47,416 bases of DNA from Deinococcales bacterium (GTDB lineage Bacteria > Deinococcota > Deinococci > Deinococcales > JAAFIG01). The notes under the pieces are model-generated. The model was not told the origin of the DNA. It did no database searches and saw only the letters and a list, made by a program, of their open reading frames with translations. The stretch lies in assembly GCA_031414595.1 (NCBI GenBank), contig JANNVX010000102.1:1-47416 (forward strand), in the 5' to 3' direction. Position numbers and translations under genes: made by a program. Below, one piece after another: positions 1-37,859 of this stretch (within the stretch, counting starts at the first letter, position 1; each line of letters begins with the position of its first letter).

Positions 1-224
1 TGAGGAATGGTTTTCTGCCTGCTCCAATAGCTCGCTTTCGTTTTTGTCCTGCAAGTGTTTTATTGTTTGGCAGACTCGCTGTAAACGCTTCTTGAAAGTA
101 TGGAAGTAAGGCTTGGAATTCTTTTTTGGTTAGTCCAGTCAAGGCTAAGAAGCGAGTTTTATTCTTGACGAGTTTGTCGTAATGCAGCACTCGAATAGTT
201 TATCCTAATTTCCGATAACGTCTA
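1..224 (-). mobile_element. Left end of an IS5-family (ISL2-like) insertion sequence, truncated by the window edge
   Basis: A minus-strand transposase N-terminus starts at 190. It is preceded by a terminal-IR-like sequence TAGACGTTATCGGAAATTAG (224-205). Beyond 224 the sequence reads as the interior of a BTAD regulator. Confidence 0.7.
2..190 (-). CDS. Transposase N-terminal HTH region (HTH_Tnp_4/DDE_Tnp_4 type), partial
   Basis: Hand translation from GTG 190: MLHYDKLVKNKTRFLALTGLTKKEFQALLPYFQEAF...KRKRAIGAGRKPFL. The FxxLTGLxxxEF and RxRxxGAGRKxxL motifs are typical of this family. Not in the ORF track. Confidence 0.75.
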   Translation of the reverse strand, partial: MLHYDKLVKNKTRFLALTGLTKKEFQALLPYFQEAFTASLPNNKTLAGQKRKRAIGAGRKPFL

Positions 225-922
225 TTGATTTAGGAAACGCCAACTTATTACCCTCAGAAAACCTTTCCAGCGCCCCAACCTTTATTTTTAATGTTCTTGG
301 TTCAATTCAAATTATTCAAAATGGCATAGAAATCCGTTACCGTGCCAAAAAACGTCTCGAGATACTGATTTACTTGCTCGAGGCTCGAGCCGCCGAACAA
401 TCCGAAAGTAATCATTTAGACTTGCTCGATGCGCTTTACCCAGAATTAACCGAAGCCGAAGGCAAAAATGCCTTAAAACAAAGTGTTTACATCCTGCGAG
501 AAAAATTCGGTTCAGACTGCATTATCAGCACTGCCAGAGGTTACAGACTAGGGGCTGCCAAAAGCGATCTTGACGAACTTTTTACCCAGCCCAACAGCAA
601 ACTCTGGCGTGGCACGTATTTACAAGGCATGGGACAAAGTTATTTTGGAATTGTCCGTGGTGCATTGCTGCAACAACTCCTGAGTGCTGCTTTGAACTCC
701 TTGAACACTGACCCAATAGAAACCATTCGATTATGCCAAATTCTGCTCGAGATGGAACCCTATGACCAAGATGCTTTAGCCCTTTTGTTACAAGCCTCAA
801 CCCACCAGCCACACATTGCCAAAAGCACGTATCAAACCATTCGGCAACGTTACCTCGAGATTGGCGAGGAATTACCACTGGATATGAAAACTTTTATGAC
901 CGAACAGCGTGTTTTGAATTAA
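225..922 (+). pseudogene. 3' remnant of a SARP/BTAD-domain transcriptional regulator, interrupted by the IS
   Basis: The frame is open from ~209 with no proper start: FNVLGSIQI...LEILIYLLEAR, LLDALYPE, LKQSVYILRE, LLEMEPYDQDALALLLQA (wHTH + BTAD). Confidence 0.7.
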
Positions 923-923
923 T

Positions 924-1445
924 TCATGGCAAGCGCGAAAAAATCACTTTCGCAGCAGCTTTAGCCACCTCGAGCGAATTCTTATTTTTTTGATAAACCG
1001 TGATGAAAACACCAATGTTTTTCTTAGTAAATCCAAGGATCGTGGTTGGGAAACGGGTCATTACTTCCACCGTAAAAGCCCCAGCGCTAGGGCTGTCCAG
1101 TGGCACAATTTTCACGTTCGGCATTGAAAATTTCATGATTTCTTGTCGGGCTTTGGCTTGTTCCAAAGCGATTTTGGCTGATTCAAAAGCAACCACCTCG
1201 AGATTCAAACCAATATTTTGTGACATATAGGCGCAGTTACTCGAGGGGGTAGTACCAGTCACTTGGTTGCTACCAGGTTTCGTGATTGGGGCTTTATCAG
1301 ATTTTTCTTGTGGGCTTAAACCAGTCCCCAACCAAGCGGTGACTTCTTTGACAGTTAGTAACGTACAGGCTTTTGGCAATACAGGTTCGGCATAAGCAAG
1401 CGTTAAGAACACAAAACTACTGGCTAAAAGTTGTATTTTTTTCAT
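924..1445 (-). CDS. Secreted hypothetical protein
   Basis: ATG 1445 follows RBS GAGGAG. Signal peptide MKKIQLLASSFVFLTLAYA; ACTLLT...NCAY cysteine pair. Confidence 0.75.
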   Translation of the reverse strand: MKKIQLLASSFVFLTLAYAEPVLPKACTLLTVKEVTAWLGTGLSPQEKSDKAPITKPGSNQVTGTTPSSNCAYMSQNIGLNLEVVAFESAKIALEQAKARQEIMKFSMPNVKIVPLDSPSAGAFTVEVMTRFPTTILGFTKKNIGVFITVYQKNKNSLEVAKAAAKVIFSRLP

Positions 1446-2253
1446 GGCGGTCTCCTCTTCGAGCAATAATAATTAAACGTGGGCTGCTGAGTACAAACCT
1501 TCCACCGTCGGGACTAGAGACGATTTGTTCGACAATAAATCCGTTGGCTACAAGCATGGTTTTTAATTCGTTTAAGGTGTATAAGCGTACCGCAAAAGTA
1601 TCAGTTTGCAGTGTTTTTCCAAGCCTGCAAATTTTTTTGCTTCCGTGCATTTCGCCTTTTTCAAGGTCAAACCCCGAGGTGGTGATGGTGTACAAATCTG
1701 TGTGTAGTAAACGATTTTTTACTAAACTTAACTGGCGTTTAAGGCTTTTCCAACGACCATAAAACCAGTGCTGCTCGAGCAGTTTTTCTAATACTTTGGC
1801 ATCGCGGTTATAAACCTCAAGTAAGAAATATCCATTTGGTTGCAATGCCTTATAAACCCCTTGCAGGATTGTATTGTGGGTGGTGTCATCCCAGTAAAAC
1901 ATCGAATTGTACAAGTTATAAATAGCCTTAAACTGCTGGTTAAACTCGAGGGTTCGCATATCGCCTTTTGTAAACTCGAGGGCTAACGAACGGCTTTTAG
2001 CTTCGGCTCGAGCGTGGTCTAGGGCTGCTTCGGAGTAGTCCAGTCCTGTCACATTTGTAAATCCACGCTTTGCCAACTCGAGGGCGTGCCGCCCATGCCC
2101 ACAAGCCAAATCAAGAATGGTATCTGAGGTTTTTAAGTCCAGTAAACGCAGTAGTAAATCAGACTGGCTACTTGTACTTTGACGTGAATGCCGTAACCCT
2201 TCGGCATTCACGTAGGCTTGGTTAAATAGCTTTTCAGTCCAACTGGTTGTCAT
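1417..2253 (-). CDS. Class I SAM-dependent methyltransferase
   Basis: Motif I ILDLACGHGRH, plus GLDYS, GDMR, LQPNGYFLLE. The true start is ATG 2253 (TAATG overlap with the upstream peptide). Confidence 0.9.
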   Translation of the reverse strand: MTTSWTEKLFNQAYVNAEGLRHSRQSTSSQSDLLLRLLDLKTSDTILDLACGHGRHALELAKRGFTNVTGLDYSEAALDHARAEAKSRSLALEFTKGDMRTLEFNQQFKAIYNLYNSMFYWDDTTHNTILQGVYKALQPNGYFLLEVYNRDAKVLEKLLEQHWFYGRWKSLKRQLSLVKNRLLHTDLYTITTSGFDLEKGEMHGSKKICRLGKTLQTDTFAVRLYTLNELKTMLVANGFIVEQIVSSPDGGRFVLSSPRLIIIARRGDRHEKNTTFSQ

Positions 2254-2390
2254 TAGATACTCAGTCCTGTGACCAGCACATACTGTTCTTGAGGCTCGAG
2301 ATGCGGCGGAGTGTAGGGTTCTTGTTGTTGCGGCAATGTATCTACTTGGGATTCTGGGAGCAATAAATCTGCCGTGGGTTCTGATGGCAT
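2253..2390 (-). CDS. 45-aa peptide with YxxPxL...TG motif (RiPP-precursor-like)
   Basis: MPSEPTADLLLPESQVDTLPQQQEPYTPPHLEPQEQYVLVTGLSI*. TAATG stop/start overlaps at both ends. Below the ORF-track cutoff. Confidence 0.7.
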   Translation of the reverse strand: MPSEPTADLLLPESQVDTLPQQQEPYTPPHLEPQEQYVLVTGLSI

Positions 2391-2581
2391 TACAAGCCAC
2401 CTCCGTCGTAACAACCTCGTTCGTCTAATGCCCTAAACATCGCATCAGCCATCCAGACGAGTCCAGCTTTGTATAGTCGAACAGCCAATGCGTTTGCTCC
2501 ATCACAGTCCATTGGTTTGGCTTGGGCTTGACCGAGGAACATCATGCAGACACAACCTAAAATCAATAACTTCTTTTTCAT
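2390..2581 (-). CDS. 63-aa secreted peptide with two mature-region cysteines
   Basis: RBS AAGGAG before ATG 2581. Signal peptide ends AQA. Mature KPMDC...RGCYDGGGL. Confidence 0.75.
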   Translation of the reverse strand: MKKKLLILGCVCMMFLGQAQAKPMDCDGANALAVRLYKAGLVWMADAMFRALDERGCYDGGGL

Positions 2582-2652
2582 AAATCTCCTTTGTGACTCG
2601 AGAAGGCGAATACCAAGTGACCGATTCAAATACCAGAGTTGAAAATATGGAT

Positions 2653-4884
2653 TCAAATACCAGAGTTATCAATCAGAAATTTTTGTAAGACAAAGCCATA
2701 CGGCACAGTAGAACTCTCGAGTTTCCCCGCCATTAAAATGTCAGCGCCGCTAAATACAGCCACCACCATTTGTTCGTACCCGCCGTATAAATGAGGCAGT
2801 AATTTCTTACCTGTACCGTTAAAGGTTGTGTCTAAAACACCAGTATTGGTGAATTTAGCAATTGCAAAACTGCTTTGATTATTGGGACTAATATAAGCGG
2901 TCGCTAGAACATAAATTTGGTTATTAATTAGGATTACACCACTGGCTGTATCTTCTCGATTTGCTGCGATTAAACCTAGGTCTTCGAGGTGAATACCATC
3001 GCTCGAGAAAGTTGTATCTGGAATGCCAAAAAGATTTAATCTAACAATGGCAATGTTTTGATGAGGATTAGAAGGATTGCTATTATCCAAAACACTGCCA
3101 ACAGCGATTATTTTCCCGACATTCGCGCCATCGTCATTGGGATAAGCCTTCAAGTCATTCATGACTGGGTTTGTTCCCATGGTCACGCTGGCGATACCAT
3201 TTGTGCCAAAGAAGGTATTGATTGAACCATTGTTATTTAAGTGAGTGAAGACAAAACTATTACTTGATGCCCCAGCCACGGCAATTCTATTTGGGTTACT
3301 GCCGGGGTCGTTAATCATTTCAGTACAAACACTCGAGGCGGGTAAGGCAACTTTGCCATCAATATCAAATGTCGTATCGAAAGCACCTGTAGTGGTGAAT
3401 CGAGCCACACTGCAAATACCACCTGTGGTACTCGAGACCACGATTTTACCAGCATCATCTAAGGTCATGGCTCGAGCGATGTTCGAACCCCCTGCGTCCC
3501 AAATGCGAAGACCTGTGCTGTTAAAACTGGTATCCAAAGCACCACTTGGCAGTAGTCGCGCCACACCCAAATTAAAATCAACACCAGCGTAGACAATAAT
3601 ATTTCCATTGCCATCAGTGCGGATTGCCCTTGGGGTATCATCACCACCAAAATCGAGAATGTATGGGAAAGGTGAGTTGTTCAAATTATAATTTTGACCA
3701 TTGGCATTGACCGCCCAAATGACGGCATTGCGGTTTGGGCTACTGCCAATGCTGCCTAGCACATAGGTAATACCATCAAAAGTAGCTACATCTACTGGTA
3801 TGGCTGGAATACTAAATTGTTCTGAACGTTGCCCCGAAGCCCCAAAGTTACAATTCAATTGGTTTAGTTCTGCAAACCACGGGCTGCTCGAGATACCTCG
3901 AGTTGTCGAGTAATACTTTTTGTTACTACCATCATCAGTAATACGAATACCACAACGTGGTTCAGCAAAACGATAACGGTGCAATTTTGTGCCATCTAGT
4001 GTGCGAATTGGATGATCTGGATTATTTTGAACTGACTGCACAGGTACATAATCATCTTTTTGCTCACTTGGGCTTTGTGAGACAATGCCTTTAGAATCAT
4101 TGACTACCAAGTAATAAATACTGAAAGCAAATGGGTTAGCACTGCGAGGATTGATTTTTGGCAATTGATACGCCAAAGAAATATCAGCACTCGAGCCAGG
4201 AGGTAAAAGCCGAGCGCTTAAATCAGTCGGGTAATTGGTTGCCACAAAACCGTACTCGAGGGGCTGCACCAGCAACGGCGGTATAAAAGCAGCAGCTTGA
4301 GTTTTTAGTGTAACTGTTTCGCTTTGTTCGATAATTTGAAAACTGCGATAACGTTGTTCTATCGGGACAGGTATGAGGTCTTGAATCGCCACAGGAACAT
4401 CTGGAATGATTCGGTGCAGCACATTCGGGTCTGTGACCGCCGTACCATCACCGCGTTGCACCACACTAAAACCCGTACCAGCCACGGTTGTACCGGGTAC
4501 GGCTGTCGCCACCAGTGTTAGGTTATCAAAAGTAAGACTGGTGTTATTAGTCACCTTAAAAATGGCGGTGATGCTGCGTTTTGCTCCTGTGGTCGTAATG
4601 TCCGAAGTCGCTGCCGAATCGTTAGAGTCGGTGAATTGCACAATTTTACGGTCAAACACAAGGTTGGGATTGGTGTAATACGGATATGCTGTCAAGGCTT
4701 GCGTGCCAAGTTGCCCAGAAGGTCTTCTAGGGTCAACAAAATTTGCCGAAGCTCGAGCGGGAACTCCATCGCCGCCTTCGATTCGTACCTCGAGTAAACC
4801 CAAGACGCTATTAACGGGTTTGGGTTGGGTTGAACAAGCCACGATGCCAAAAGCAATCAGTCCGCACATCAGTATTCTTTTCAT
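2653..4884 (-). CDS. Lipoprotein with C-terminal delta-60-type beta-propeller repeats
   Basis: Lipobox IVAC; five repeats of the form RxxxxGxLDxxFxxxG (SGALDTSFNSTG, TGAFDTTFDIDG, NGSINTFFGTNG, FGIPDTTFSSDG, TGVLDTTFNGTG). Confidence 0.85.
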   Translation of the reverse strand: MKRILMCGLIAFGIVACSTQPKPVNSVLGLLEVRIEGGDGVPARASANFVDPRRPSGQLGTQALTAYPYYTNPNLVFDRKIVQFTDSNDSAATSDITTTGAKRSITAIFKVTNNTSLTFDNLTLVATAVPGTTVAGTGFSVVQRGDGTAVTDPNVLHRIIPDVPVAIQDLIPVPIEQRYRSFQIIEQSETVTLKTQAAAFIPPLLVQPLEYGFVATNYPTDLSARLLPPGSSADISLAYQLPKINPRSANPFAFSIYYLVVNDSKGIVSQSPSEQKDDYVPVQSVQNNPDHPIRTLDGTKLHRYRFAEPRCGIRITDDGSNKKYYSTTRGISSSPWFAELNQLNCNFGASGQRSEQFSIPAIPVDVATFDGITYVLGSIGSSPNRNAVIWAVNANGQNYNLNNSPFPYILDFGGDDTPRAIRTDGNGNIIVYAGVDFNLGVARLLPSGALDTSFNSTGLRIWDAGGSNIARAMTLDDAGKIVVSSTTGGICSVARFTTTGAFDTTFDIDGKVALPASSVCTEMINDPGSNPNRIAVAGASSNSFVFTHLNNNGSINTFFGTNGIASVTMGTNPVMNDLKAYPNDDGANVGKIIAVGSVLDNSNPSNPHQNIAIVRLNLFGIPDTTFSSDGIHLEDLGLIAANREDTASGVILINNQIYVLATAYISPNNQSSFAIAKFTNTGVLDTTFNGTGKKLLPHLYGGYEQMVVAVFSGADILMAGKLESSTVPYGFVLQKFLIDNSGI

Positions 4885-4928
4885 GAATACCAGTTTGAAG
4901 ATTGGGTGGTCACACTTTAGTTATTGTT

Positions 4929-5693
4929 TTACTCGAGCCATGGCAGAATCTCGAGTAGATTTTTACACTCGAGGTCAGCGCTCACAGTTTTTGGTTTGAA
5001 GCCACGGTCAAGCCAGACCGTTTTCATACCCGCATTGATTCCGCCTTGAACATCTCGGTCTGCATTATCGCCAACCATGACGCATTCGTCTAAACTGACC
5101 TCGAGTTCGTTGGCAACCCATTCAAAAATACCTTTTTCGGGTTTACCAATGCCGACTTCGCCACTTATCGCCACTGCATCAAACCAAGTCTCGAGTCCGC
5201 AACCATGCCATTTTTTGCGTTGCAACCCAGCAATTCCGTTGGTGACAATGCCAAGTTTGTACTGACCGTATAAGCTCGAGAACAATTCATCGGCATCGGG
5301 ATAAAGCGGGTATCTCGAGCGCAAGGCTGTCCAACGTTCAGAAAGTTCTACCGCATCGGCATCTAGGTCGGTTTCCTCGAGTGCCTCTGCCCAACACATG
5401 ACTTTGATTTCAGACATGGCTTTTTCTAATAACCGCTCTGGCTCGAGACTTGGGTTGTATGAAGCCCATAAACCCTCGAGCGCACCATGCCCAATGCGTT
5501 TGGCGTACTCGAGGGCAAGCGGCGGAATGGTTGTCCAGAGGCGTTTGGCGTGGCTTTCGGCGGCAAGAGCCAGCGCAGAGGCTTGCGCTTTGTCTCGAGT
5601 GACAGTTTGCGCCGTAATATAAAAAGCATGAAGCACCACAGGCTCATCTAAAATCAGGGTTTCGTCGAGGTCAAATAAAATCGCTTTAATCAC
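4929..5693 (-). CDS. HAD-superfamily hydrolase
   Basis: FDLDETL, IVTNG, GKP and MVGDNADRDV motifs. Confidence 0.92.
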   Translation of the reverse strand: MIKAILFDLDETLILDEPVVLHAFYITAQTVTRDKAQASALALAAESHAKRLWTTIPPLALEYAKRIGHGALEGLWASYNPSLEPERLLEKAMSEIKVMCWAEALEETDLDADAVELSERWTALRSRYPLYPDADELFSSLYGQYKLGIVTNGIAGLQRKKWHGCGLETWFDAVAISGEVGIGKPEKGIFEWVANELEVSLDECVMVGDNADRDVQGGINAGMKTVWLDRGFKPKTVSADLECKNLLEILPWLE

Positions 5694-7641: not shown

Positions 7642-7857
7642 ATGAAATACAACGTTATTTTGTATCCATCTGACCAAGGCTTTGCAGTCGAAGCCCCTGA
7701 TTTGGTTGGTTGTTGGTCTCAGGGTGCAACTCAAGAAGAAGCATTAGAAAACATTGGAATTGCCATTCAAGAATACTTGGAATTCACCCAAGAGCAAACA
7801 GGAAACCGTCCTGTGATTGAACCAAGTTTTATAAGGCAAATCGAAGTGGCAATCTAA
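7642..7857 (+). CDS. hicB: HicB-family antitoxin
   Basis: PDLVGCWSQGATQEEALENI. Confidence 0.9.
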   Translation: MKYNVILYPSDQGFAVEAPDLVGCWSQGATQEEALENIGIAIQEYLEFTQEQTGNRPVIEPSFIRQIEVAI

Positions 7858-7860
7858 TTT

Positions 7861-8073
7861 ATGCCCAAATTACCAGGAATTCATCATTTAGAAGCCATAC
7901 GAGCCTTTGAAAAAGCTGGTTTTTGGGTCTCGAGACAAGGAAAACATACCATCATGTACAACGGATTGATCACCCTAATCATTCCTCGCCATAATCCAAT
8001 AGATGCAATGACAATGGGTGGTTTGATTAAAGCTGCGGGTTATAAAGTTGAAGATTTTCGTCGCTTTTTATGA
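7861..8073 (+). CDS. hicA: HicA-family mRNA interferase toxin
   Basis: MPKLPG...AFEKAGF...RQGKH...IPRH; adjacent to hicB. Confidence 0.9.
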   Translation: MPKLPGIHHLEAIRAFEKAGFWVSRQGKHTIMYNGLITLIIPRHNPIDAMTMGGLIKAAGYKVEDFRRFL

Positions 8074-11651: not shown

Positions 11652-12056
11652 ATGGAAAATACCACCCAAGCACAACTCCAAAACATGGCTCGAGTCATGG
11701 GTATTGCCAGTGGCGCAAAGCAAGTGATTTTATTTGGCAGCACCGCTAGAGGCGAAGCGACCCAAGACAGCGACTTGGATTTTTTACTCGTCATGCGAGA
11801 TGAAGACTGGAAGTGGAACGGCAAAACCTTAGAAAAACTCGAGCCTGCCATGAAAGCCCGAGAAGCAGTCAGAGAAACAGGATACTGGATGCCATTAGAT
11901 GTATTGTTATTACCCGAAAGTCGATACAGAGACCCTAATTCGTATTTAGCAAGTGAAGTCCAACGAGACGGCATTGTTTTGTTTGAACAAGGAGAAAATC
12001 ATGCCAGCACCGTACTACGCGCCTATGCTCGAGGAGAATTAGGATTGGAGGGATAA
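11652..12056 (+). CDS. MNT-type minimal nucleotidyltransferase (antitoxin-like)
   Basis: ILFGSTARG...DSDLDFLLV...PLDVLL. Confidence 0.9.
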   Translation: MENTTQAQLQNMARVMGIASGAKQVILFGSTARGEATQDSDLDFLLVMRDEDWKWNGKTLEKLEPAMKAREAVRETGYWMPLDVLLLPESRYRDPNSYLASEVQRDGIVLFEQGENHASTVLRAYARGELGLEG

Positions 12057-12065
12057 GGAGTCCAT

Positions 12066-12224
12066 ATGCGATTAACCGCCGTTTTAACCAATGCCGAAGA
12101 AGGAGGATTTATTGCTTTTAACCCAGAAACAGGCACAACCACCGAAGGAGAAACTGTACAAGAAGCGATTGACAACTTAAAAGAAGCAACAACGCTGTAT
12201 CTCGAGGAGTTCCCAACGAGGTGA
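12066..12224 (+). CDS. hicB: Short HicB-family antitoxin (52 aa), orphan
   Basis: Hand-translated MRLTAVLTNAEEGGFIAFNPETGTTTEGETVQEAIDNLKEATTLYLEEFPTR; RBS AAGGAG; close paralog of 30144-30347. Confidence 0.8.
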   Translation: MRLTAVLTNAEEGGFIAFNPETGTTTEGETVQEAIDNLKEATTLYLEEFPTR

Positions 12225-12228
12225 AACC

Positions 12229-12456
12229 ATGAGCGTCAAAGATAAGTTACTCGAGAAAATAGAAACCATGACCCAAGCCGACCTTGAATGGTTAAGTTCG
12301 GTACTTGAAGCACACGATTACCCGGATATTCGAGTAGATTATGGCGAGGCAAAACGATTAGAAATGATTGATATTCTCGAGAAACTAGGCGCACCAAACG
12401 ACACAGACATGACCGACTTCAACAATTCCATTCAGCGTCGCCCTTGGAAATCATGA
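12229..12456 (+). CDS. Small acidic antitoxin-like protein
   Basis: 75 aa with RBS GAGG; its stop overlaps (ATGA) a short downstream ORF stub. Confidence 0.6.
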   Translation: MSVKDKLLEKIETMTQADLEWLSSVLEAHDYPDIRVDYGEAKRLEMIDILEKLGAPNDTDMTDFNNSIQRRPWKS

Positions 12457-12504
12457 GACACATATTCATAGCAAAAACCAACTATCAGATTAAAGGAGAT
12501 TTTT

Positions 12505-14334
12505 GTGATTAGGTATGAGGTAGGAATTGTTGTGGCAACTACGCGTGAATTGAATGCAATCAAAGGTTTATTTAAATCTGGTTACACTGAACATCGTTTA
12601 GGTTATGAATATGAAATAGCAGGGGGCGGACAAACTTTCATAGGGTATCTTGGAGAGATTTCCAATTGCACTATTTTAGCAATCAAAGGCTTAAAGCAGG
12701 GGAGTGTTCATGCAGCAATGGCTACACTTCAATTATTACGAGAAGGCAGACCACAACTGTTAATTTTAAGTGGGATTGCAGGTTCATTAAGTGAGTCTAT
12801 ACAGCTAGGCGATGTTGTTTTTTCTGATAGTATTTACGCATATGAATACAAAAAAATTCTAGATGTTGAAAATGAAATTTCAGAACAAAGTGAAGCAAGA
12901 GTCATTGAGAGTAGATTTAGTGTTATTAAGTCTTATTGTGAAGAATTCATCAAAGAGAGAAATAAGGAAGTGAGTGAAAAGCCTAGATTTCACTTTGAAA
13001 AAATAGCATCAGGTTCAAAAATAGTTGCTTCCAAAGCTCTAAAGTCAAAAATGGGTGAAGTTGAAAGGCAAGCAAAAGCTGTAGAAATGGAAAGCGAAGG
13101 CTTTGCAAGTGTAGCCGTGGTTGAAGACATACCTTTTTTTGTGGTGAAGGCAATATCAGATTTCGCAGGGAAAGATAAAGTTGAAGGTTTCGCTCAAAAC
13201 GGTACTCAAGATACTGCTGTAAGTAATTCGGCAAACGCAGTTTCCTTATTTATTGAATTTATTAGCGAAAAGTTACGTTGGATAAAAGAAAAATCGCAAA
13301 TGGCAGACTCTTTCGATGTTTTTATGCCGAAAAACGAAGAAAAAAGTTTTATTGAGCTAATTGGTTACACTCCAAGTATCAAAATTGGTGATTTTGATAC
13401 AAAATGCCAAGTGTTTCCCGAGACTGCTTTCAAAAATCCGAATCAACATATCTACACTGATTTCGGAGTAGAGTCGAATAATAAACTAATCTTTCATATG
13501 CTTGAAGATACAGCAACATTAGAAGCTTCAAAAGATTTTTTTACAACTCTCGAAAAGATATTGACAGAAAACAAGGAGTATATTGAATACGAGAAATTTG
13601 TTTCGGCAAACCAAAATGTGAGAGATGGCAATAATCAGTATCCGAGACTAATACACAAACCTATTGAAATAAACGGTAGTTTACATTTAATTTTAGGGAA
13701 GAATAATTTTTTTATTACAGATTTATCAAGTAGAATTCCAGCATTTCCCAACTTAAGAAGTTTCATGCAGGAACATATAGTCAATTCATTAGCAGTTAGA
13801 GTTTGTTTGGTCTTTCAAGAATCTAATCAAAAAATTATTGCCTTTCAAAAACGAGGAGAGAGCAACTCCACCTATTCGGAAGCATGGGATGTTGCTGCTG
13901 CTGGATATATTGATCCTATTAAGCATATTCATAATGAATACAAAAAACTTAGTGCGTATGTTACTGCTCGAAATGAATTAGTGGAAGAACAAAATATAGA
14001 GTTTCTTGATTTACCAAACCAAGAAAGATTTAGTTTTTTTGGGATTTGCAGAATGGAATTGACTAATAGTTTTGATATTATTGCCCTTTGTGAAACTGAT
14101 CAAGATATTGGCAGGCATAGATCACCTCGTGAATCAGTAAAAAAAGTATCAGAATTTGGATATTGTGCGTTAAATCCGAAAGACGTAGCGGATTTTATAG
14201 CTGAAAAGAAATATTGGATTCCCGGAGCAATCATATCTCTTTATATGACTCTTCGTTATTTTGGTTTTTCAAATGAAAATATTTTAGCCGAATTTTCTCC
14301 AATCATTAATCAAATAAGAATTTCTCCGGATTGA
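12505..14334 (+). CDS. PNP/MTA-SAH nucleosidase domain fused to a Nudix-like domain
   Basis: N-terminal LSGIAGSL, LGDVV, IASGS, AVEMES, KAISDFAG. C-terminal FQKRG...AWDVAAAGYID...ARNELVEEQNI. AT-rich, no CTCGAG. Confidence 0.85.
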   Translation: MIRYEVGIVVATTRELNAIKGLFKSGYTEHRLGYEYEIAGGGQTFIGYLGEISNCTILAIKGLKQGSVHAAMATLQLLREGRPQLLILSGIAGSLSESIQLGDVVFSDSIYAYEYKKILDVENEISEQSEARVIESRFSVIKSYCEEFIKERNKEVSEKPRFHFEKIASGSKIVASKALKSKMGEVERQAKAVEMESEGFASVAVVEDIPFFVVKAISDFAGKDKVEGFAQNGTQDTAVSNSANAVSLFIEFISEKLRWIKEKSQMADSFDVFMPKNEEKSFIELIGYTPSIKIGDFDTKCQVFPETAFKNPNQHIYTDFGVESNNKLIFHMLEDTATLEASKDFFTTLEKILTENKEYIEYEKFVSANQNVRDGNNQYPRLIHKPIEINGSLHLILGKNNFFITDLSSRIPAFPNLRSFMQEHIVNSLAVRVCLVFQESNQKIIAFQKRGESNSTYSEAWDVAAAGYIDPIKHIHNEYKKLSAYVTARNELVEEQNIEFLDLPNQERFSFFGICRMELTNSFDIIALCETDQDIGRHRSPRESVKKVSEFGYCALNPKDVADFIAEKKYWIPGAIISLYMTLRYFGFSNENILAEFSPIINQIRISPD

Positions 14335-14435
14335 GTTCTTAGTGTATTTTTGATAGTTAATTTGCAATTCAAATCTAAGGATTCTGCAAAGTACCAAAAC
14401 CTCAAATCTTGACAATAATCACAAAGGAGTAAATC

Positions 14436-14816
14436 ATGAACATCCCATCCGACCTGCAATACCTCAAATCCCACGAGTACGTCCGACTCGAGGGCGACAT
14501 TGCCACCATTGGCATTTCCGACTTTGCCCAAGACCAACTCGGCGATGTTGTCTACGTCGAACTGCCCGAAGTTGGGCGTATCGTCTCGAGCAACGAAGCT
14601 GTCGCCGTAGTCGAAAGCGTCAAAACCGCTTCGGATATTTACAGCCCTGTCTCTGGTGAAGTGATTGAAATTAACTCGAGCCTGACCGATGAACCAGAGA
14701 ACATCAACGCCGAACCTTACGGCAATGGATTCCTCTTCAAAGTCCGTGTCACTGACACCTCGAGCCACTTGCTAGACGCTGCTGCCTACCGAGAAGTTGC
14801 CGAAGCCGAGGCGTAA
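14436..14816 (+). CDS. gcvH: Glycine cleavage system H protein
   Basis: [19 protein letters not shown]; lipoyl-Lys motif VESVKTASD. Confidence 0.98.
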
Positions 14817-16342: not shown

Positions 16343-16669
16343 ATGAAGGATTACCATATCAACCTTTTCTTTCACGAAAAAAGCAATTGTTGGGTGGCTG
16401 ACTTACCCGACTTTCATTACTGTTCGGCATTGGGCGACACGCCATTGGAAGCCTTACAGGAACTTGAGATTGCCAAAGCACTTTGGCTCGAGGCTGCAAA
16501 GGAAAAAGGACATGAAATCCCTGAACCAAGGTATCGTCCGGCAATTTATTCGGTGTTTAACAGGGTAGAACCATTAAAAGTATCGGCAAAGAAACCTTCT
16601 GTTACCAAAAAAACATCTCCGAAAATCCAAAAGAAACGTGTTGCAAAACAAATCGTAGCTGCTCTGTGA
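16343..16669 (+). CDS. hicB: HicB-family antitoxin with basic tail, orphan
   Basis: WVADLPDFHYCSALGDTPLEALQEL...IPEP. Confidence 0.85.
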   Translation: MKDYHINLFFHEKSNCWVADLPDFHYCSALGDTPLEALQELEIAKALWLEAAKEKGHEIPEPRYRPAIYSVFNRVEPLKVSAKKPSVTKKTSPKIQKKRVAKQIVAAL

Positions 16670-29321: not shown

Positions 29322-29912
29322 ATGGCAAATGTTCTTGATTCTACCGAGCAATTCACACCAATATCTCGAGCCGAGTGGCGAGTGTGGCTCGAGGTAAATT
29401 ACAGAACCAAAAAACGCATTTGGTTGGTGTTTTATAAAAAAGCGACCAGTAAACCAAGCCTGACCTATGCCGAAGCCGTCGAAGAAGCCCTGTGTTTTGG
29501 CTGGATAGATTCTCTGCCAAAAAAACTAGACTTTGAGCGCCACATGCTGCTTTTCACCACCCGTAAACCCAAATCGCCTTGGTCAAGACTGAACAAAACC
29601 CGAGTCGAGCAATTGATTGCTGGTGGCTTAATGACTGCTGCTGGACTTGAGAAAATCGAAATTGCCAAGAAAAATGGCGCTTGGGAAATTTACGATGCTG
29701 CTGAGGACTTACTCGAGCCAGATGATTTAATGCTCATGCTCAATGCAAATGCCACAGCTCGAGCCAATTGGGACGGCTTTGCGCCATCGGCACGAAAAGG
29801 CATTTTGTACTGGTTGTCCACTGCTAAACGCGAGGAAACCCGTTTGAAAAGGTTGCTCGAGATTGTAGAAAAAGCCGCAGTCAATAAAAAAGCCAATTTC
29901 CCAAATCAGTAA
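29322..29912 (+). CDS. YdeI/OmpD-associated family protein
   Basis: EWRVWLE, AVEEALCFGWIDS, SPWSRLNK, AKREETR. Confidence 0.92.
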   Translation: MANVLDSTEQFTPISRAEWRVWLEVNYRTKKRIWLVFYKKATSKPSLTYAEAVEEALCFGWIDSLPKKLDFERHMLLFTTRKPKSPWSRLNKTRVEQLIAGGLMTAAGLEKIEIAKKNGAWEIYDAAEDLLEPDDLMLMLNANATARANWDGFAPSARKGILYWLSTAKREETRLKRLLEIVEKAAVNKKANFPNQ

Positions 29913-29929
29913 GGGCAGAAATACACCCC

Positions 29930-30151
29930 TCATTTTCCCAAGGCTTTAGAAAATTCATCTGCCGATACACCAGCCTGACGCAAAACACCATTGACCGTTC
30001 CAACTTTAACTTCTTTATGATTTGGCACAACACAACCCGAAGCACCACGACGCATGATGATATGACTACCTGTTTGACGCAGAACTTCAAATCCTATACG
30101 TTCAAACGCACGAACCATATCTTGTCCTGATAAACCCGGAAATTTAGGCAT
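29930..30151 (-). CDS. hicA: HicA-family toxin
   Basis: RQTGSHIIM, VVPNHKEVKVGT. Confidence 0.92.
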   Translation of the reverse strand: MPKFPGLSGQDMVRAFERIGFEVLRQTGSHIIMRRGASGCVVPNHKEVKVGTVNGVLRQAGVSADEFSKALGK

Positions 30152-30347
30152 GACCTACATCAAACGTGGTCACAAGTGGATGAGCCGTAATCATCATTGG
30201 AAATTCCTCGAGATACAGTTCAGTGGCTTCTTTAAGGTTGGCAACCGCTTCTTGCACCGTTTCGCCTTGAGTTGTAGTCCCTGTTTCTGGGTTGAAAGCG
30301 ACAAAGCCGCCTTCTTCGGCGGGTGTTAAAACTGCTGTTAATAACAT
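30144..30347 (-). CDS. hicB: HicB-family antitoxin
   Basis: EEGGFVA...TQGETVQEAVANLKEATELYLE. Confidence 0.9.
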   Translation of the reverse strand: MLLTAVLTPAEEGGFVAFNPETGTTTQGETVQEAVANLKEATELYLEEFPMMITAHPLVTTFDVGHA

Positions 30348-31016: not shown

Positions 31017-31406
31017 CTAGCGCGTCTCGAGACCAAGCAAAACTCGAGCATGAAGCCTTAAAACTGTTGTAGCGTTTTGAACCGCCTCAGCTTCCTCGGT
31101 GGTTGGGTCGTCTAATTCGCTTGGGTATCGGGCTGGAATCGAAACCGCGTTAATCAAACGGGCTGCTTTTATTTCAGGGCTATTTGATTGAATTAGTGGC
31201 GAAACCATTTGTACCAATTCACGTAAATTGTGCGAAAGCGGTGGGTCAATTCCTTGAAAAAGCAGAACAGCTTTCAAATACTTTTCGCTCGATTGCTGCA
31301 ATAAGTACACAGCCGTATGAGGTGAGTCAATCATTAGCGTTCCAGCCGCCACAAATTCTTCTTCTGCAAAACGTACCCAACGTGTGTAATCTCTTGAGTT
31401 AGCCAT
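31017..31406 (-). CDS. HEPN-domain protein
   Basis: WVRFAEEE, QQSSEKYLKA, SHNLREL, ARYP; ATG 31406 overlaps the MNT stop. Confidence 0.9.
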   Translation of the reverse strand: MANSRDYTRWVRFAEEEFVAAGTLMIDSPHTAVYLLQQSSEKYLKAVLLFQGIDPPLSHNLRELVQMVSPLIQSNSPEIKAARLINAVSIPARYPSELDDPTTEEAEAVQNATTVLRLHARVLLGLETR

Positions 31407-31743
31407 ATAAAACGATGCCTTCTTGGGCAACTCGCCGCGCTAGAATAGATTCCCCAGCTTGGTAATGCTCGAGGCTCATTGGAATAAGGTCAACAGAATA
31501 CGGCGCATTCCAAAAAACTTCATCAGCTTCAATGGCAGCGTTTAACAAAACTTGACGCTCAGCAGTTGGCATTAGCAGCAATAAATCTAAATCGCTTATT
31601 AAGGTTTGTGTTCCTCGAGCCACACTGCCAAAAACCATAATTTTACTTGCACCACTGACCAAGGCAACTTTTTGGGCTAAAAAACGCAGTTCCTCGAGCT
31701 TACTTGGGGGTGCAATTCTTTGTACAACTTGATTGCTTGCCAT
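31399..31743 (-). CDS. MNT nucleotidyltransferase
   Basis: VFGSVARG...SDLDLLL...VDLIP; TAGACT 7 nt before ATG 31743. Confidence 0.9.
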   Translation of the reverse strand: MASNQVVQRIAPPSKLEELRFLAQKVALVSGASKIMVFGSVARGTQTLISDLDLLLLMPTAERQVLLNAAIEADEVFWNAPYSVDLIPMSLEHYQAGESILARRVAQEGIVLYG

Positions 31744-31808
31744 GCTTTCCAGTCTACAAGGTTTTGTCAAGCCTAGCGCGTCTCGAGAATGGGCAGTAAC
31801 ATAGTCTC

Positions 31809-34800
31809 ATGTCTGATAACCCCGCCACCCTAGCCCATAATCTCGAGCAGTCGCTTAAACCCAAACGATTTGCCCATTTGCATCAACACACACAGTACAG
31901 CTTGCTGGACGGTGCGGCTCGAGTCAAAGACTTACTGAAATGGGTCGCTAAAACCAGCCCAGAAAACCCAGCCCTCGCCATGACCGACCACGGTAATATG
32001 CACGGTGCAGTCCAATTTTTTAAGTACGCACAGGATGCTGGTGTCAAACCGATTATTGGTTACGAAGCCTATGTTTCGGCTGGCTCGAGGTTTGACCGGA
32101 TTCAACGCCGAGATGTAGACGGTGGTTACTACCATTTAACGCTTCTAGCAAAGGATTTTAAGGGCTACCAGAACTTATGTAAATTGGCTTCGATTGCCTA
32201 TCTCGAGGGCTTTTACCAAAAACCACGCATAGACCGTGAAGTGCTTGCCTTACACCGCGAGGGGATTATTGCCATGAGCGGTTGCCTTGGCGCGGAAGTT
32301 CCGAATATGATTCTCAATGACCGTCTCGAGGATGCCGAGGAGCGCTTAAAATGGTACTTGGCGACCTTTGGTGATGATTATTATATTGAAATTCAGAATC
32401 ACGGCTTGCCAGAACAGCAAAAAGTCAATCCAGTCTTAAAAGCGTGGGCGGCTAAATACGGTGTCGGAATGGTTGCCACCAACGACGGTCATTATGTGCG
32501 TCATGAAGATGCCTATGCCCATGAGGTACTGCTGGCGATTCAGACCAAAGCCTTGATGTCTGAAGAAAAACGCTTTAAGTTTAGTTGCGAAGAATTTTAT
32601 GTCAAAACCCAAGCCGAAATGGAAAATCTTCTGCCCTCGAGCCAGTGGGGAGACGAAATTTATGACAACAGCAATGTAATTGCCGAAAAATGCAACCTCG
32701 AGTTACCAATAGGTTCAAAGCGAGTCTATCAAATGCCAGCCCTGCCAATTCCTGAAGGGCGAAGCATGGCAGAAGAACTTCGGGTTCAAGTTTATCGGGG
32801 AACAGCTCAGCGTTATCCCAAGGAATTTACCCTCGAGTTGTTGCACAAATATGCTGCCTTGTCTTTAGAGAAATTAGACAATGAAAATCGTGAACATGTC
32901 TTTGCCCGAACCGTAGGGGCGAGGCATGCCTCGCCCTTGCCCGAAACGATGTTGGGTTTGCCCAACCAGCCGATGCCAGAGGCTGATGCTGGTCAGGGCG
33001 AACACGAGGTTCGCCCCTACGAAAAACAGGTTCAAAATCTGAATCTCGAGGAAACCATTTTATTATTGGCTTTTACGGGTGAAATTTGGCTCGAGAATTC
33101 AAAAGCTCAAAAGTACACGCAATACATCGCACTCGATGCACTCGAAGCGGATGAAAACATGGTATCAAAACTTGGGCAGTCCTTGGTGGTCTTACGCCGT
33201 GCCGAGTACGAACTTGGTGTGATTATTCGCATGGGTTTCCCAGATTATTTTTTGATTGTGGCAGATTTTATCAACTGGGCAAAAGACCACGGTATTCGCG
33301 TCGGTCCCGGGCGTGGTTCGGGCGCGGGTAGCCTAGTGGCGTTTGCACTTAAAATCACCAACCTTGACCCAATTGGTTACGGCTTGCTGTTTGAGCGGTT
33401 TCTCAATCCAGACCGTGTTTCGATGCCAGATTTTGATGTTGACTTTTCGGATTCGCGGCGCAACGAAGTGATTAACTATGTGCGCGATAAATACGGTGAT
33501 GACAAAGTAGCCATGATTGCCACTTACGGAACAATGTCGAGTCGGGCGTGTTTTAAGGATGTGGCTCGGGTTCTCGAGTTACCGTTTGCCGAAGCTGATA
33601 AACTCTCGAAACTCGTACCAGTGGTCTTTGGTCGGGCGCTCAGTCTCGAGGATGCCGAAAATGCTGTACCGGACATTAAAGCCATGCTCGAGGCAAACCC
33701 AGCCACCCGTAAAGTCTATGAAATCGCCAAGAATTTAGAAGGTTTAACCCGCCACTCGAGTATCCATGCCTCAGGTGTGGTGATTGGGCGTGAGCGTTTG
33801 GATAACATTGTGCCACTCATGCGGGGCGGTTCGGACGAAGGCGTGGTTTGTCAGTACGACATGAGCAGTGTTGAGGATATTGGCTTAATCAAAATGGATT
33901 TTTTAGGGCTGCGGACCCTTTCTTTTCTCGAGGAAGCAGTGCGGATTATTAAGGAATCCAAAGGTGTCAGTCTCGAGCCGGATGATTTTGGGCTTGAAGA
34001 TGCTAAAACCTATGAACTGATTTCGAGGGGTGAAACCAAAGGGGTTTTTCAACTCGAGGGCGGCGGAATTACCGATGCAGCACGTAAATTAAAACCGCGT
34101 CGAATTGAGGATATTAACGCATTATCAGCGTTGTATCGCCCGGGTCCGATGGATAACATTCCAGCCTATATCGAGCGCCATCACGGACGAGAAGCGGTGC
34201 GTTATGACCAAGGCGAGTTTAATCTGCCAAAGTGCGAACCGTTGTTGCGCCCGATTCTCGAGGAGACTTACGGTATTCCAGTCTACCAAGAGCAAATTAT
34301 GCAGATTGCTTCGGCAGTGGCGGGTTATACATTAGGGCAAGCGGATTTGCTGCGCCGGGCAATGGGGAAAAAGAAATTGGATGAGATGGAAAAAGAACGG
34401 GTTAAATTTGTGGCTGGTGCAAAAACCGTGCATTCCATTCCCGAAGATGAATCAGCTAGGTTGTTTGGCATCCTCGAGAAGTTCGCCAATTATGGGTTTA
34501 ATAAGTGTTTAGTTGGCAATACTGTTGTGCATTCAAGTAATGGTGTGCCTCATACGTTGCAGACTTTGTTTGAAAGTCAACAGTTGATTGAAGTAGCAAC
34601 CCTAGAAGAAGGTTTTACACTTGGGCGCAGTCGTGTGCTTGGGGTTTTTGAAAATGGGATTAAACCTGTTTTTGAATTGCAAACTTCGCTTGGTAAGTCA
34701 CTGGTGGCGACTGGAAATCATCCATTATTGACCTTGAATGGTTGGAAAAATCTCAAAGATTTACAGGTTGGTGACAGAATTGCTGCTCCTGCTCAGTTAC

Positions 34801-37118: not shown

Positions 37119-37119
37119 A

Positions 37120-37536
37120 ATGGCTAAAGACCGTTTTCATGATGTTGTTCGCACAGCCTTGGAAAAGGATGGCTGGCGCATAACCAACGATCCACTACTC
37201 ATTCCAATTGGACGTTCTAACATTCAAATTGACCTCGGTGCAGAACGTCTCATTGCTGCCGAAAATGGCAAAAAACTCATTGCCGTCGAGATTAAAGTAT
37301 TTGGTCAACCTTCTTTTACTTATGCGTTCCATGAAGCACTTGGACAGTTTATGAATTATCGTTTGCAACTTGCAAAACGTGAACCTACTCGAGAGTTATT
37401 TTTAGCTGTACCTGTGGATACTTTTGTGCGTTATTTTGATTCTGAATTAACAACTGATGCAATTACTCATTATCAAGTTAAAGTTCTTGTGTACGATCCT
37501 GTCAGCGAGGTGATTGTCCAATGGATCAACAATTAA
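37120..37536 (+). CDS. xisH: XisH-family PD-(D/E)XK protein
   Basis: AKDRFHDVVRTALEKDGWRITNDP, IDLGAE, AVEIK, ALGQFMNYR. Confidence 0.92.
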   Translation: MAKDRFHDVVRTALEKDGWRITNDPLLIPIGRSNIQIDLGAERLIAAENGKKLIAVEIKVFGQPSFTYAFHEALGQFMNYRLQLAKREPTRELFLAVPVDTFVRYFDSELTTDAITHYQVKVLVYDPVSEVIVQWINN

Positions 37537-37859
37537 CGCCAGACCAAACCGCAATTCTAGCTGTACTCGAGCCAATGAAGCTCTGGAGTACGCCTTATGC
37601 CAAATTGCGTTACGAAATAGTTTCTGATTTCGCACATCAGCATTTTCAGGTGTGTATGACAGGTTGGGATGGCATAACTCGAGTTCATAGTTTACTAGTG
37701 CATATTGTTATTCGAGATGATTTGGTTTGGCTAGAAGAAGACCTAACCGATGCTGATATTGCTGAGCAACTGGTGCAAGCTGGAATTACTCGAGACCGAA
37801 TTGTACTGGGTTTTCAAGCACCATATAAACGCGGCATGTACGGCTTTGCACAAGGGTAA
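37521..37859 (+). CDS. xisI: XisI-family protein
   Basis: GWDG.RVH, LVWLEEDLTD, LVQAGI...IVLGFQAPYKR. Confidence 0.92.
   Translation: MDQQLTPDQTAILAVLEPMKLWSTPYAKLRYEIVSDFAHQHFQVCMTGWDGITRVHSLLVHIVIRDDLVWLEEDLTDADIAEQLVQAGITRDRIVLGFQAPYKRGMYGFAQG

Follow-up and report, generated by a model that had tools for sequence, protein, structure and literature searches.

The DNA considered here, hereafter the window, comprises positions 1 to 47,416 of contig JANNVX010000102.1 (assembly GCA_031414595.1) from an uncultured Deinococcales bacterium. On its minus strand lies a row of genes that includes a 45-codon open reading frame (ORF) without annotation (2390..2253), specifying the acidic peptide MPSEPTADLLLPESQVDTLPQQQEPYTPPHLEPQEQYVLVTGLSI, followed at once by the gene of a 278-aa class I S-adenosylmethionine (SAM)-dependent methyltransferase (MT; 2253..1417) with a beta-strand cap, similar to NmbA and CypM. 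Sequence comparison indicates that the small ORF is a real gene under purifying selection, that its product belongs to a previously undescribed family of peptides, and that at the evaluable Deinococcales loci such a gene accompanies the orthologous MT gene. The explanation that we favour, with confidence just short of even, is that peptide and adjacent MT constitute a two-gene module, in which the MT would bind a leader-like motif of the peptide (Y-x-x-P-x-L-E-x4-Y-x2-[VI]-[TV] in the family) and methylate it.

The peptide gene and its family

The ORF is tightly joined to both neighbours. The TAA stop of the preceding gene, which codes for a 63-aa secreted-type protein, overlaps its ATG within a TAATG, its own TAA does the same with the MT start codon, and the MT gene in turn shares 29 nt with the next gene (1445..924; 173-aa product). 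This arrangement had been pointed out in a preliminary description of the DNA, and our reading of the minus strand confirms it. A GGAGG Shine-Dalgarno sequence stands 9 nt ahead of the ATG; the related peptide genes of two loci discussed below, L002 and L003, also possess ribosome-binding sites of their own (GGGGAG and GGGAG, respectively). The peptide has a net charge of -7; its N-terminal half varies, and the PYTPPHLEPQEQYVLVTGLSI at the C-terminal end is conserved.

An ORF so short, assignable to no known family and bearing a motif near chance level (see below), might have no functional product: it could have arisen by chance, be a vestige (as the preliminary description considered) or, lying upstream, act in cis merely to couple MT translation. 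Two observations could be read in that sense. In the window the MT frame is itself open upstream, giving a 327-aa ORF from a GTG at 2400, and in two database entries for MT homologues, P0005 and P0006 (78% and 73% identical), the annotation prolongs the N-terminus in the MT frame in place of the peptide. The pattern of substitutions speaks against this. In a close Deinococcales relative (locus L001; MT 84% identical, entire gene row syntenic) the peptide gene differs from that of the window by 10 nt and the peptide is 89% identical; the first 15 codons carry 5 amino-acid changes, while the last 30 carry none, only 3 synonymous third-position changes. The P0005 and P0006 extensions depart from the MT-frame translation of the window at 16/31 and 15/31 residues (the 31 being 30 extension residues plus the start Met), and the differences are mostly single changes at first positions of the MT frame, which are third positions of the peptide frame. 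By parsimony, and judged from the protein sequences rather than from the DNA of the loci, both would still encode ...PYTPPHLE[PA]QEQYVL[VI]TGLSI-stop. Moreover, L001 offers no start codon able to extend the MT frame, and all 23 closest MT homologues have a common start region with W5, F10 and Y14 invariant, beginning at a conserved M-x2-W-T-x2-L-F. The 327-aa MT was rejected on these three grounds, and the frame under selection is therefore that of the peptide.

Further evidence bears on the same question. Gene callers predicted two 45-aa homologues, 93% identical to the window peptide, in two other assemblies, on contigs equal in length to those of the MT homologues P0002 and P0003 (89% and 83% identical); searches at library scale returned homologues at E down to 1e-5 or below; and the homologue of L003 lies downstream of the MT gene, with its own ribosome-binding site and terminator, so that it is no upstream coupling ORF. 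The vestigial reading is rejected, as the short form with its ...G[LI]SI ending persists in relatives with diverged N-terminal halves (P0143 and L002) and is under purifying selection. By the preliminary description an ORF that was not conserved would have told against its proposal, and the same-length homologues, together with the purely synonymous changes in its C-terminal part, show conservation. All in all, an ORF without functional product is largely refuted and in our view very improbable. Annotation has otherwise missed or miscalled the gene: the P0005 and P0006 entries are 40-45 residues too long, because the MT has been prolonged through the peptide gene in the wrong frame, and this error masks the small gene.

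We hold the gene to be real because of its conservation and its same-length homologues, and not because of the motif to which the preliminary description had drawn attention, YxxPxL followed by Thr. In 2,027,642 six-frame residues (the window and the 80 related loci described below) we counted 9 occurrences of Y..P.L.{9}T, the chance rate being ~0.2 per window; about 5 of the 9 matches were unrelated to the peptide, and one lay inside the delta-60 lipoprotein of the gene row itself. The motif by itself is not significant. At such a chance rate it therefore proves nothing, and the case has to be built on conservation and homology.

A first profile, made from five sequences and searched against 1.84 billion representative proteins, gave 5 matches at E<=0.001: P0121, a known close homologue, three new peptides of 38-49 aa (P0124-P0126), and P0123 (2770 aa), a low-complexity repeat discarded as an artefact. 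A second search by word and profile, starting from an 8-sequence alignment, brought 29 proteins of 36-78 aa. The resulting family comprises about 30 small acidic peptides of 31-78 aa with a common Y-x-x-P-x-L-E-x4-Y. Y26, P29 and E32 are invariant in all 32 sequences, L31 and Y37 nearly so, and all 32 are net acidic (-1 to -8). It is a previously undescribed family: at E<=10 NCBIfam returned nothing for 5 of 6 peptides and only a chance-level match (E 0.12) for that of L003, and an Atlas search with the peptide gave chance-level scores only (0.80).

Three forms can be distinguished. The short form ends in ...Y-x-[LA]-V-[TV]-G-[LI]-S-I and is found in the window, L001, P0121, P0122, P0143 (36 aa; N-terminus diverged) and, in L002, an ORF of 31 aa. 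The intermediate form has variable acidic tails (P0124, P0125, P0126, P0131, P0147 and P0150); P0124 and P0150 carry the database label 'Pleurocapsa sp.' metagenome-assembled genome. The long form, 61-78 aa, is represented by 20 aligned sequences. Its N-terminal 32 residues, which we call the leader, have a mean pairwise identity of 0.67 and its C-terminal 24 residues, IGQP[LI]DLIS[DN]PGLELIPDPVD[IL]GI, one of 0.86; in the 7-11 aa between them, rich in Gly, Ser, Thr and Cys, the value falls to 0.35, and all 20 middles are distinct. A leader and a tail that are both conserved, with a hypervariable stretch between them, resemble the anatomy of precursors of ribosomally made, post-translationally modified peptides (RiPPs). 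Cleavage of the long form at a double glycine (...GG|[FL]IGQP) was considered and rejected, the GG being missing from some members. Alignment by hhalign of a short-plus-intermediate profile with the long profile connects the forms over 31 columns (probability 90.6%, E 1.3e-6).

Linkage to the methyltransferase and its possible meaning

Genomic context was studied by scanning a genome collection with an MT alignment, the best 80 of 502 relatives being taken as loci. Four of these are from Deinococcales, with MT identities of 84% (L001) and 43% (L002-L004). A hidden Markov model (HMM) of 29 database peptides, run over the 29,475 six-frame ORFs of the window and the 80 loci, matched in the window, L001, L002 and L003 only, the next best E being 2.1; near-identical window/L001 sequences and the L003 sequence were part of the model, so the L002 match (E 3.7e-7) alone is independent. 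The L004 contig ends inside the MT gene and shows its upstream side only, so that it does not count among the evaluable loci. The peptide gene is thus directly beside the MT orthologue in 4/4 evaluable Deinococcales loci, and peptide and MT are the only genes common to window/L001, L002 and L003.

The arrangement itself varies. The peptide gene precedes that of the MT in the window and in L001, where it abuts or overlaps the MT start. In L002 it lies ~50 nt upstream and is followed by a 15-bp hairpin with U6 (-33.2 kcal/mol, z -7.0), and the L003 peptide gene comes 70 nt downstream of its MT gene, with a weaker hairpin plus U6 after it (z -2.2). Coupling of the peptide to a SAM methyltransferase, as proposed in the preliminary description, therefore extends to diverged lineages. 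The same description held that MT homologues without a peptide neighbour would count against the idea. Such homologues exist, but they are distant ones: the peptide HMM found nothing beside the MT gene at any of the 76 loci with MT identity <=35%.

The MT has 12 Pfam matches, all to generic class I methyltransferase domains (Methyltransf_25, E 1.8e-20). Its best NCBIfam match is the methyltransferase of daptide-type RiPPs, NF041820, with 65.1 bits against a cutoff of 175, which excludes membership. Among PDB sequences the best match is NmbA (9RI2; E 3.2e-24, residues 43-265), and for an AlphaFold2 model (pLDDT 92.3), in which no winged-helix RRE-like domain is seen, the top Foldseek matches are 9RI2 (NmbA), 1WZN (PH1305), 7WZG (CypM), 3D2L and CcbJ. 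NmbA is thus the best match both in sequence and in fold, over the Rossmann core and the C-terminal cap; the two enzymes have an LD[IL]ACGxGRH motif in common and are 26-32% identical (25-26% by Foldseek), and the N-terminal cap strands do not align. A further difference is found at about MT residues 150-186: the cap loop of NmbA at this place is disordered and 24 residues long, and the MT has a longer, strongly basic insert that is specific to its clade. The insert measures 35-42 residues in the 23 closest MT homologues versus 26 in distant ones; its charge is +5 to +7 in the 6 closest MTs, +7.9 on average in the next 17 and +0.2 on average in 85 distant ones. Set against the acidic peptides, the basic insert gives circumstantial support to direct contact between enzyme and peptide.

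Put together, these data suggest the following sequence of events for the module that we favour. The conserved motif of the peptide would serve as a leader-like docking segment, bound directly by the MT without a separate RiPP recognition element (RRE) protein, the contact being probably made by the basic helical insert in the substrate-binding cap. The MT would then methylate the peptide, most likely at an amine nitrogen, because its nearest characterised relatives are N-directed: NmbA N-methylates the cysteine amine of bacillithiol, and the beta-strand-cap group, in which Table 2 of the same source includes the RiPP enzymes CypM and CgnL, is described there as mostly N-directed (PMC12719100). 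The product would be the methylated peptide, or a fragment of it freed by a general protease. Binding, methylation and its site, as well as any role of the peptide in export or signalling, are inferred.

Another possibility is that the peptide is no substrate at all but assists or controls the MT as a small partner, whether by activating it, by inhibiting it or as a specificity subunit, the true substrate being a small molecule such as a low-molecular-weight thiol. That the best match in sequence and structure is a bacillithiol N-methyltransferase would be naturally explained in this way; the TAATG coupling favours stoichiometric co-production, the short-type peptides are essentially devoid of a core, and motif and basic insert would suit a stable complex as well as a transient one. 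On the other hand, a structural subunit hardly accounts for the hypervariable middle between the conserved segments of the long form, and the hairpin between the peptide and MT genes of L002 argues for unequal expression, as expected of a precursor. The resemblance to NmbA also has its limits: the match begins only at residue 43, the identity lies under the 35% limit of the NmbA clusters in the network of its authors (35-95% identity), and most Deinococcota are, according to that study, without NmbA (PMC12719100). No bsh gene was noticed among the Pfam matches of the window ORFs, in a scan not aimed at bsh genes. We regard the partner role as unlikely.

Several considerations tell against methylation of the peptide by the MT. 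The substrate of NmbA, the nearest enzyme that has been characterised, is a small-molecule thiol rather than a peptide, and the short-type peptides have almost nothing after the motif that could serve as a core. The 263 proteins (E<=0.001) of the wider MT family are spread over many phyla without the peptide, which was seen at none of the 76 distant loci; no neighbour of this wider family is conserved across phyla either, the recurrent ones being confined to Nostoc or to Dehalococcoidia. Context comes from 4 loci which, the window and L001 being close relatives, amount to effectively 3 independent cases, and the linkage count covers these loci, leaving out the contigs of ~25 other family members. 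Three long-type peptides are on NCBI contigs of 38-96 kb, none of which is among the best 80 MT loci: some family members may lack an MT neighbour, or their genomes fall outside the scanned collection. Finally, CTCGAG, the palindrome that encodes the invariant Leu-Glu of the family, is over-represented ~40-fold in this lineage (see below), so that the DNA level could account for some of the conservation of the motif.

A bolder version of the module would make it a new RiPP-like class of Deinococcota. In it an NmbA/CypM-type N-methyltransferase would be the sole class-defining enzyme and would read a YxxPxL leader of the lasso/LPP type directly through its basic insert, without an RRE. From the short G[LI]SI form would come a signal, either the whole peptide in methylated form or a very small methylated piece of its C-terminus, with a link to the neighbouring delta-60 surface protein and TPR/SARP-like regulator, and the long form would diversify a hypervariable core held between two docking segments. 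We consider this improbable. Were methylation of the peptide true, the cluster would come from a phylum for which our literature search found nothing on RiPP precursor peptides, and YxxPxL leaders, which until now have been read by RRE domains, would prove pairable with an RRE-less enzyme, which bears on the evolution of leader recognition. The peptide HMM, combined with the MT clade that carries the basic insert, provides a handle for mining.

The rest of the gene row and of the window

The row begins with a 743-aa protein (4884..2653, minus strand) that matches delta-60 repeats (TIGR02608; 5 stretches, 107.9 bits versus a cutoff of 76.5) and the DUF5122 beta-propeller (PF17164; 45.9 bits versus 27). 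The preliminary description called it a delta-60 lipoprotein, and the repeat assignment is borne out by these matches; the lipoprotein part derives from a lipobox-like IVAC at the N-terminus, read by eye. A literature search for 'delta-60 repeat' found nothing. The 63-aa protein (2581..2390, minus) has a signal-peptide-like N-terminus, ...GQAQA|KP, also read by eye, two Cys in its mature part and no Pfam or NCBIfam match. It is present in L001 (4364..4552) and was not seen in L002-L004; between the window and L001 its mature part, with both Cys conserved, has by eye diverged visibly more than the MT (84%) or the peptide (89%). The 173-aa protein encoded at 1445..924 (minus), also with a signal-peptide-like N-terminus, has no Pfam or NCBIfam match, and Atlas placed it in unnamed clusters only (score 0.94). 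All three genes are conserved in L001, as is the 29-nt overlap between the MT and 173-aa genes.

Convergent on the row, at 221..922 of the plus strand, is a regulator gene that the preliminary description had classed as BTAD. It is the 3' remnant of a large regulator gene, with a winged helix-turn-helix and a BTAD-like C-terminus: homology to an L001 gene of at least 813 aa stops near 220. Neither the window ORF (374..922) nor the full-length L001 homologue has a BTAD Pfam match at E<=0.01. Some support for the earlier label is provided by weak collinear BLASTP similarity of the window and L001 regulators (E 0.016 and 0.068) to the L002 regulator, which matches BTAD (PF03704, 25.0 bits versus 22.1), NB-ARC and TPR. 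Beyond the break an ORF on the minus strand (190..2) runs off the window; its N-terminus resembles the helix-turn-helix of an insertion sequence transposase, but Pfam found no meaningful match.

In L002 a 118-aa delta-60 ORF and the BTAD/NB-ARC/TPR regulator precede the peptide gene, whereas L003 and L004 have neither a delta-60 ORF nor a SARP-like regulator. Because of this distribution the peptide-MT pair is taken as the core, and the remaining genes are at most lineage-specific accessories. The earlier suggestion that lipoprotein and secreted proteins belong to one system with the pair is thus faintly favoured by L002 and left without counterpart in L003 and L004.

Between the delta-60 gene and the 63-aa gene, on the minus strand, stand direct repeats of TCTGGTATTTGAATC: two exact 15-nt copies 27 nt apart (2623..2664), the first of which covers the stop codon of the lipoprotein gene, and a degenerate third copy near 2614..2605, so that the whole occupies 2605..2664. 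Both exact copies are intact in L001 (about 4270..4340), with a diverged spacer and a 12-nt insertion after the second copy. The repeats may be regarded as a candidate control site upstream of the 63-aa, 45-aa and MT genes. Consensus scans of 700..5200 for promoters and terminators gave no more than shuffled sequence would, and do not define the limits of an operon.

In L003 the gene directly after the long-type peptide gene (1670..2113) encodes a DUF1905 + OmdA protein ('bacteriocin-protection, YdeI/OmpD-associated'), which raises a possible link to self-protection against the peptide; the OmdA protein of the window lies far from the peptide gene, at 29322..29912.

The hexamer CTCGAG occurs 274 times in the 47.4 kb of the window, against an expected 6.4 +/- 2.4, the next commonest 6-mer palindrome occurring 31 times. 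Its density is 5-6.7 per kb in five Deinococcales sequences, versus a median of 0.27 per kb in all 81 (the five included), and it is a highly iterated palindrome of this Deinococcales lineage. Of the 31 copies in dnaE, 23 are read in phase as Leu-Glu. A literature search listed no paper that, going by title and abstract, treats this over-representation. The only long CTCGAG-free stretch, 12376..14487, where GC falls to 0.37, separates gcvT from gcvH/gcvP and has probably been inserted from a foreign source; a 609-aa ORF within it (12505..14334) has an N-terminal domain of the PNP_UDP_1 phosphorylase superfamily. The window further contains an intein in the DNA polymerase III alpha gene (31809..37118; Intein_splicing at residues 912-1329, LAGLIDADG_3 at 1116-1193), HicA/HicB-like toxin-antitoxin genes or fragments (7642..8073, 16343..16669, 29930..30347 and 12066..12224), two nucleotidyltransferase genes, one alone (11652..12056) and one paired with a HEPN gene (31017..31770), and XisH/XisI genes (37021..37859).

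Comparison with known peptide and methyltransferase systems

The preliminary description took the YxxPxL motif as the signature of lasso-type leaders, and there is indeed a likeness. Some actinobacterial lasso leaders have an aromatic residue at motif position 12, and so does the window peptide. A lasso core forms a macrolactam ring of 7-9 residues, closed on an Asp or Glu at its position 7-9, and goes on into a tail; the core here would be only LSI, 3 residues without any macrolactam acceptor, and among the longer relatives an acidic residue at core position 7 is found in P0124 and P0131 but not in P0125, P0126, P0147, P0150 or the long type. Neither the window nor the 4 related loci yielded B1/B2 or C genes. 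It is on account of the core that a lasso precursor was ruled out. What stands is the register of the motif: if the leader ends at G42, then Y26, P29, L31 and T41 are at -17, -14, -12 and -2, and in lasso leaders YxxPxL occupies -17..-12 and Thr (rarely Ile or Val) -2 (PMC10368454). The Thr is not invariant in the family (L002 has Val at the equivalent position), nor does the motif single out the lasso type, YxxPx[L/V] being used by linear polyphosphorylated peptides (LPPs) as well (PMC13381572).

Such likenesses leave room for a peptide that is a precursor dependent on an RRE, related to lasso peptides or LPPs, with its main enzymes encoded elsewhere in the genome and the MT acting in tailoring or forming a regulatory link. 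The exactly lasso-like register, with T/V at -2 (PMC10368454), would fit, as would the Thr16 and Ser19 that the family has in common with the LPP consensus (PMC13381572); discrete RREs are able to bind a Y/WxxPx[L/V/I/F/A] motif in two RiPP classes, and the Gly/Ser/Thr/Cys-rich middles of the long form resemble substrates of dehydrating or heterocyclising enzymes. However, no Pfam match to PqqD/RRE, lasso peptidase/cyclase, YcaO, kinase or radical-SAM was obtained in window ORFs >=90 aa, intergenic ORFs of 50-99 aa or the L002-L004 flanks, with the reservation that divergent RREs can escape Pfam, nor one to transglutaminase-like or Asn-synthase domains in the window or these flanks. For the window this agrees with the preliminary description, which had seen no RRE, cyclase or leader peptidase there. 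In addition, RiPP enzymes normally cluster with their precursor and the MT is the only conserved neighbour here, and the core rules of lasso peptides fail. An RRE-dependent origin is accordingly improbable in our eyes, on a par with the partner role.

LPPs are themselves instructive, since in them the motif occurs apart from the lasso topology. These linear RiPP precursors have YxxPx[V/L]...T..S conserved at the N-terminus and a C-terminus that varies highly, and their leader consensus is YxxPxVLxHQxIxFETxxS (PMC13381572). In the short-type peptides Y1, P4, the hydrophobic position 6, T16 and S19 coincide with this consensus, whereas L7, H9, Q10, F14 and E15 do not. The RRE, peptidase, kinase and transporter genes of LPPs were not found here (by Pfam, in the window and the L002-L004 flanks), and LPPs occur in Bacillota, with no methyltransferase taking part in their biosynthesis as described (PMC13381572).

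On the enzyme side, NmbA differs from the MT in its small-molecule substrate, the MT having a peptide neighbour. CypM (7WZG), which ranks 4 by Foldseek (E 6.6e-18) and has the same beta-cap class I fold, brings a RiPP precedent: it is the N-terminal dimethyltransferase of cypemycin and methylates the alpha-amine of a peptide. Its sequence is only 19% identical to the MT, it acts after leader removal and with relaxed specificity (PMC11285071), and linaridin genes of the CypH/CypL type are absent here.

The closest architectural precedent is provided by the imiditides, whose clusters consist of an unannotated precursor of 30-75 aa and a methyltransferase, represented by the precursor NmaA and the PIMT-type O-methyltransferase NmaM, with recognition by charge (Cao et al., bioRxiv 10.1101/2023.04.07.536058). 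The likeness is one of architecture and does not imply membership. The MT here is a beta-cap class I enzyme of the NmbA/CypM kind and not a PIMT, no PCMT being among its 12 Pfam matches; peptide family, motif and phylum are different (Deinococcales versus actinomycetes), and no conserved site of the Asp-His type was identified in the peptides. In both cases, however, the cluster is minimal, with only precursor and MT conserved, and charge complementarity is seen, the imiditide enzyme acting on a linear precursor without an RRE. Thus, if the MT does modify its neighbour, the pair would represent a second minimal RiPP cluster of a precursor plus a methyltransferase after the imiditides, built around a different enzyme family.

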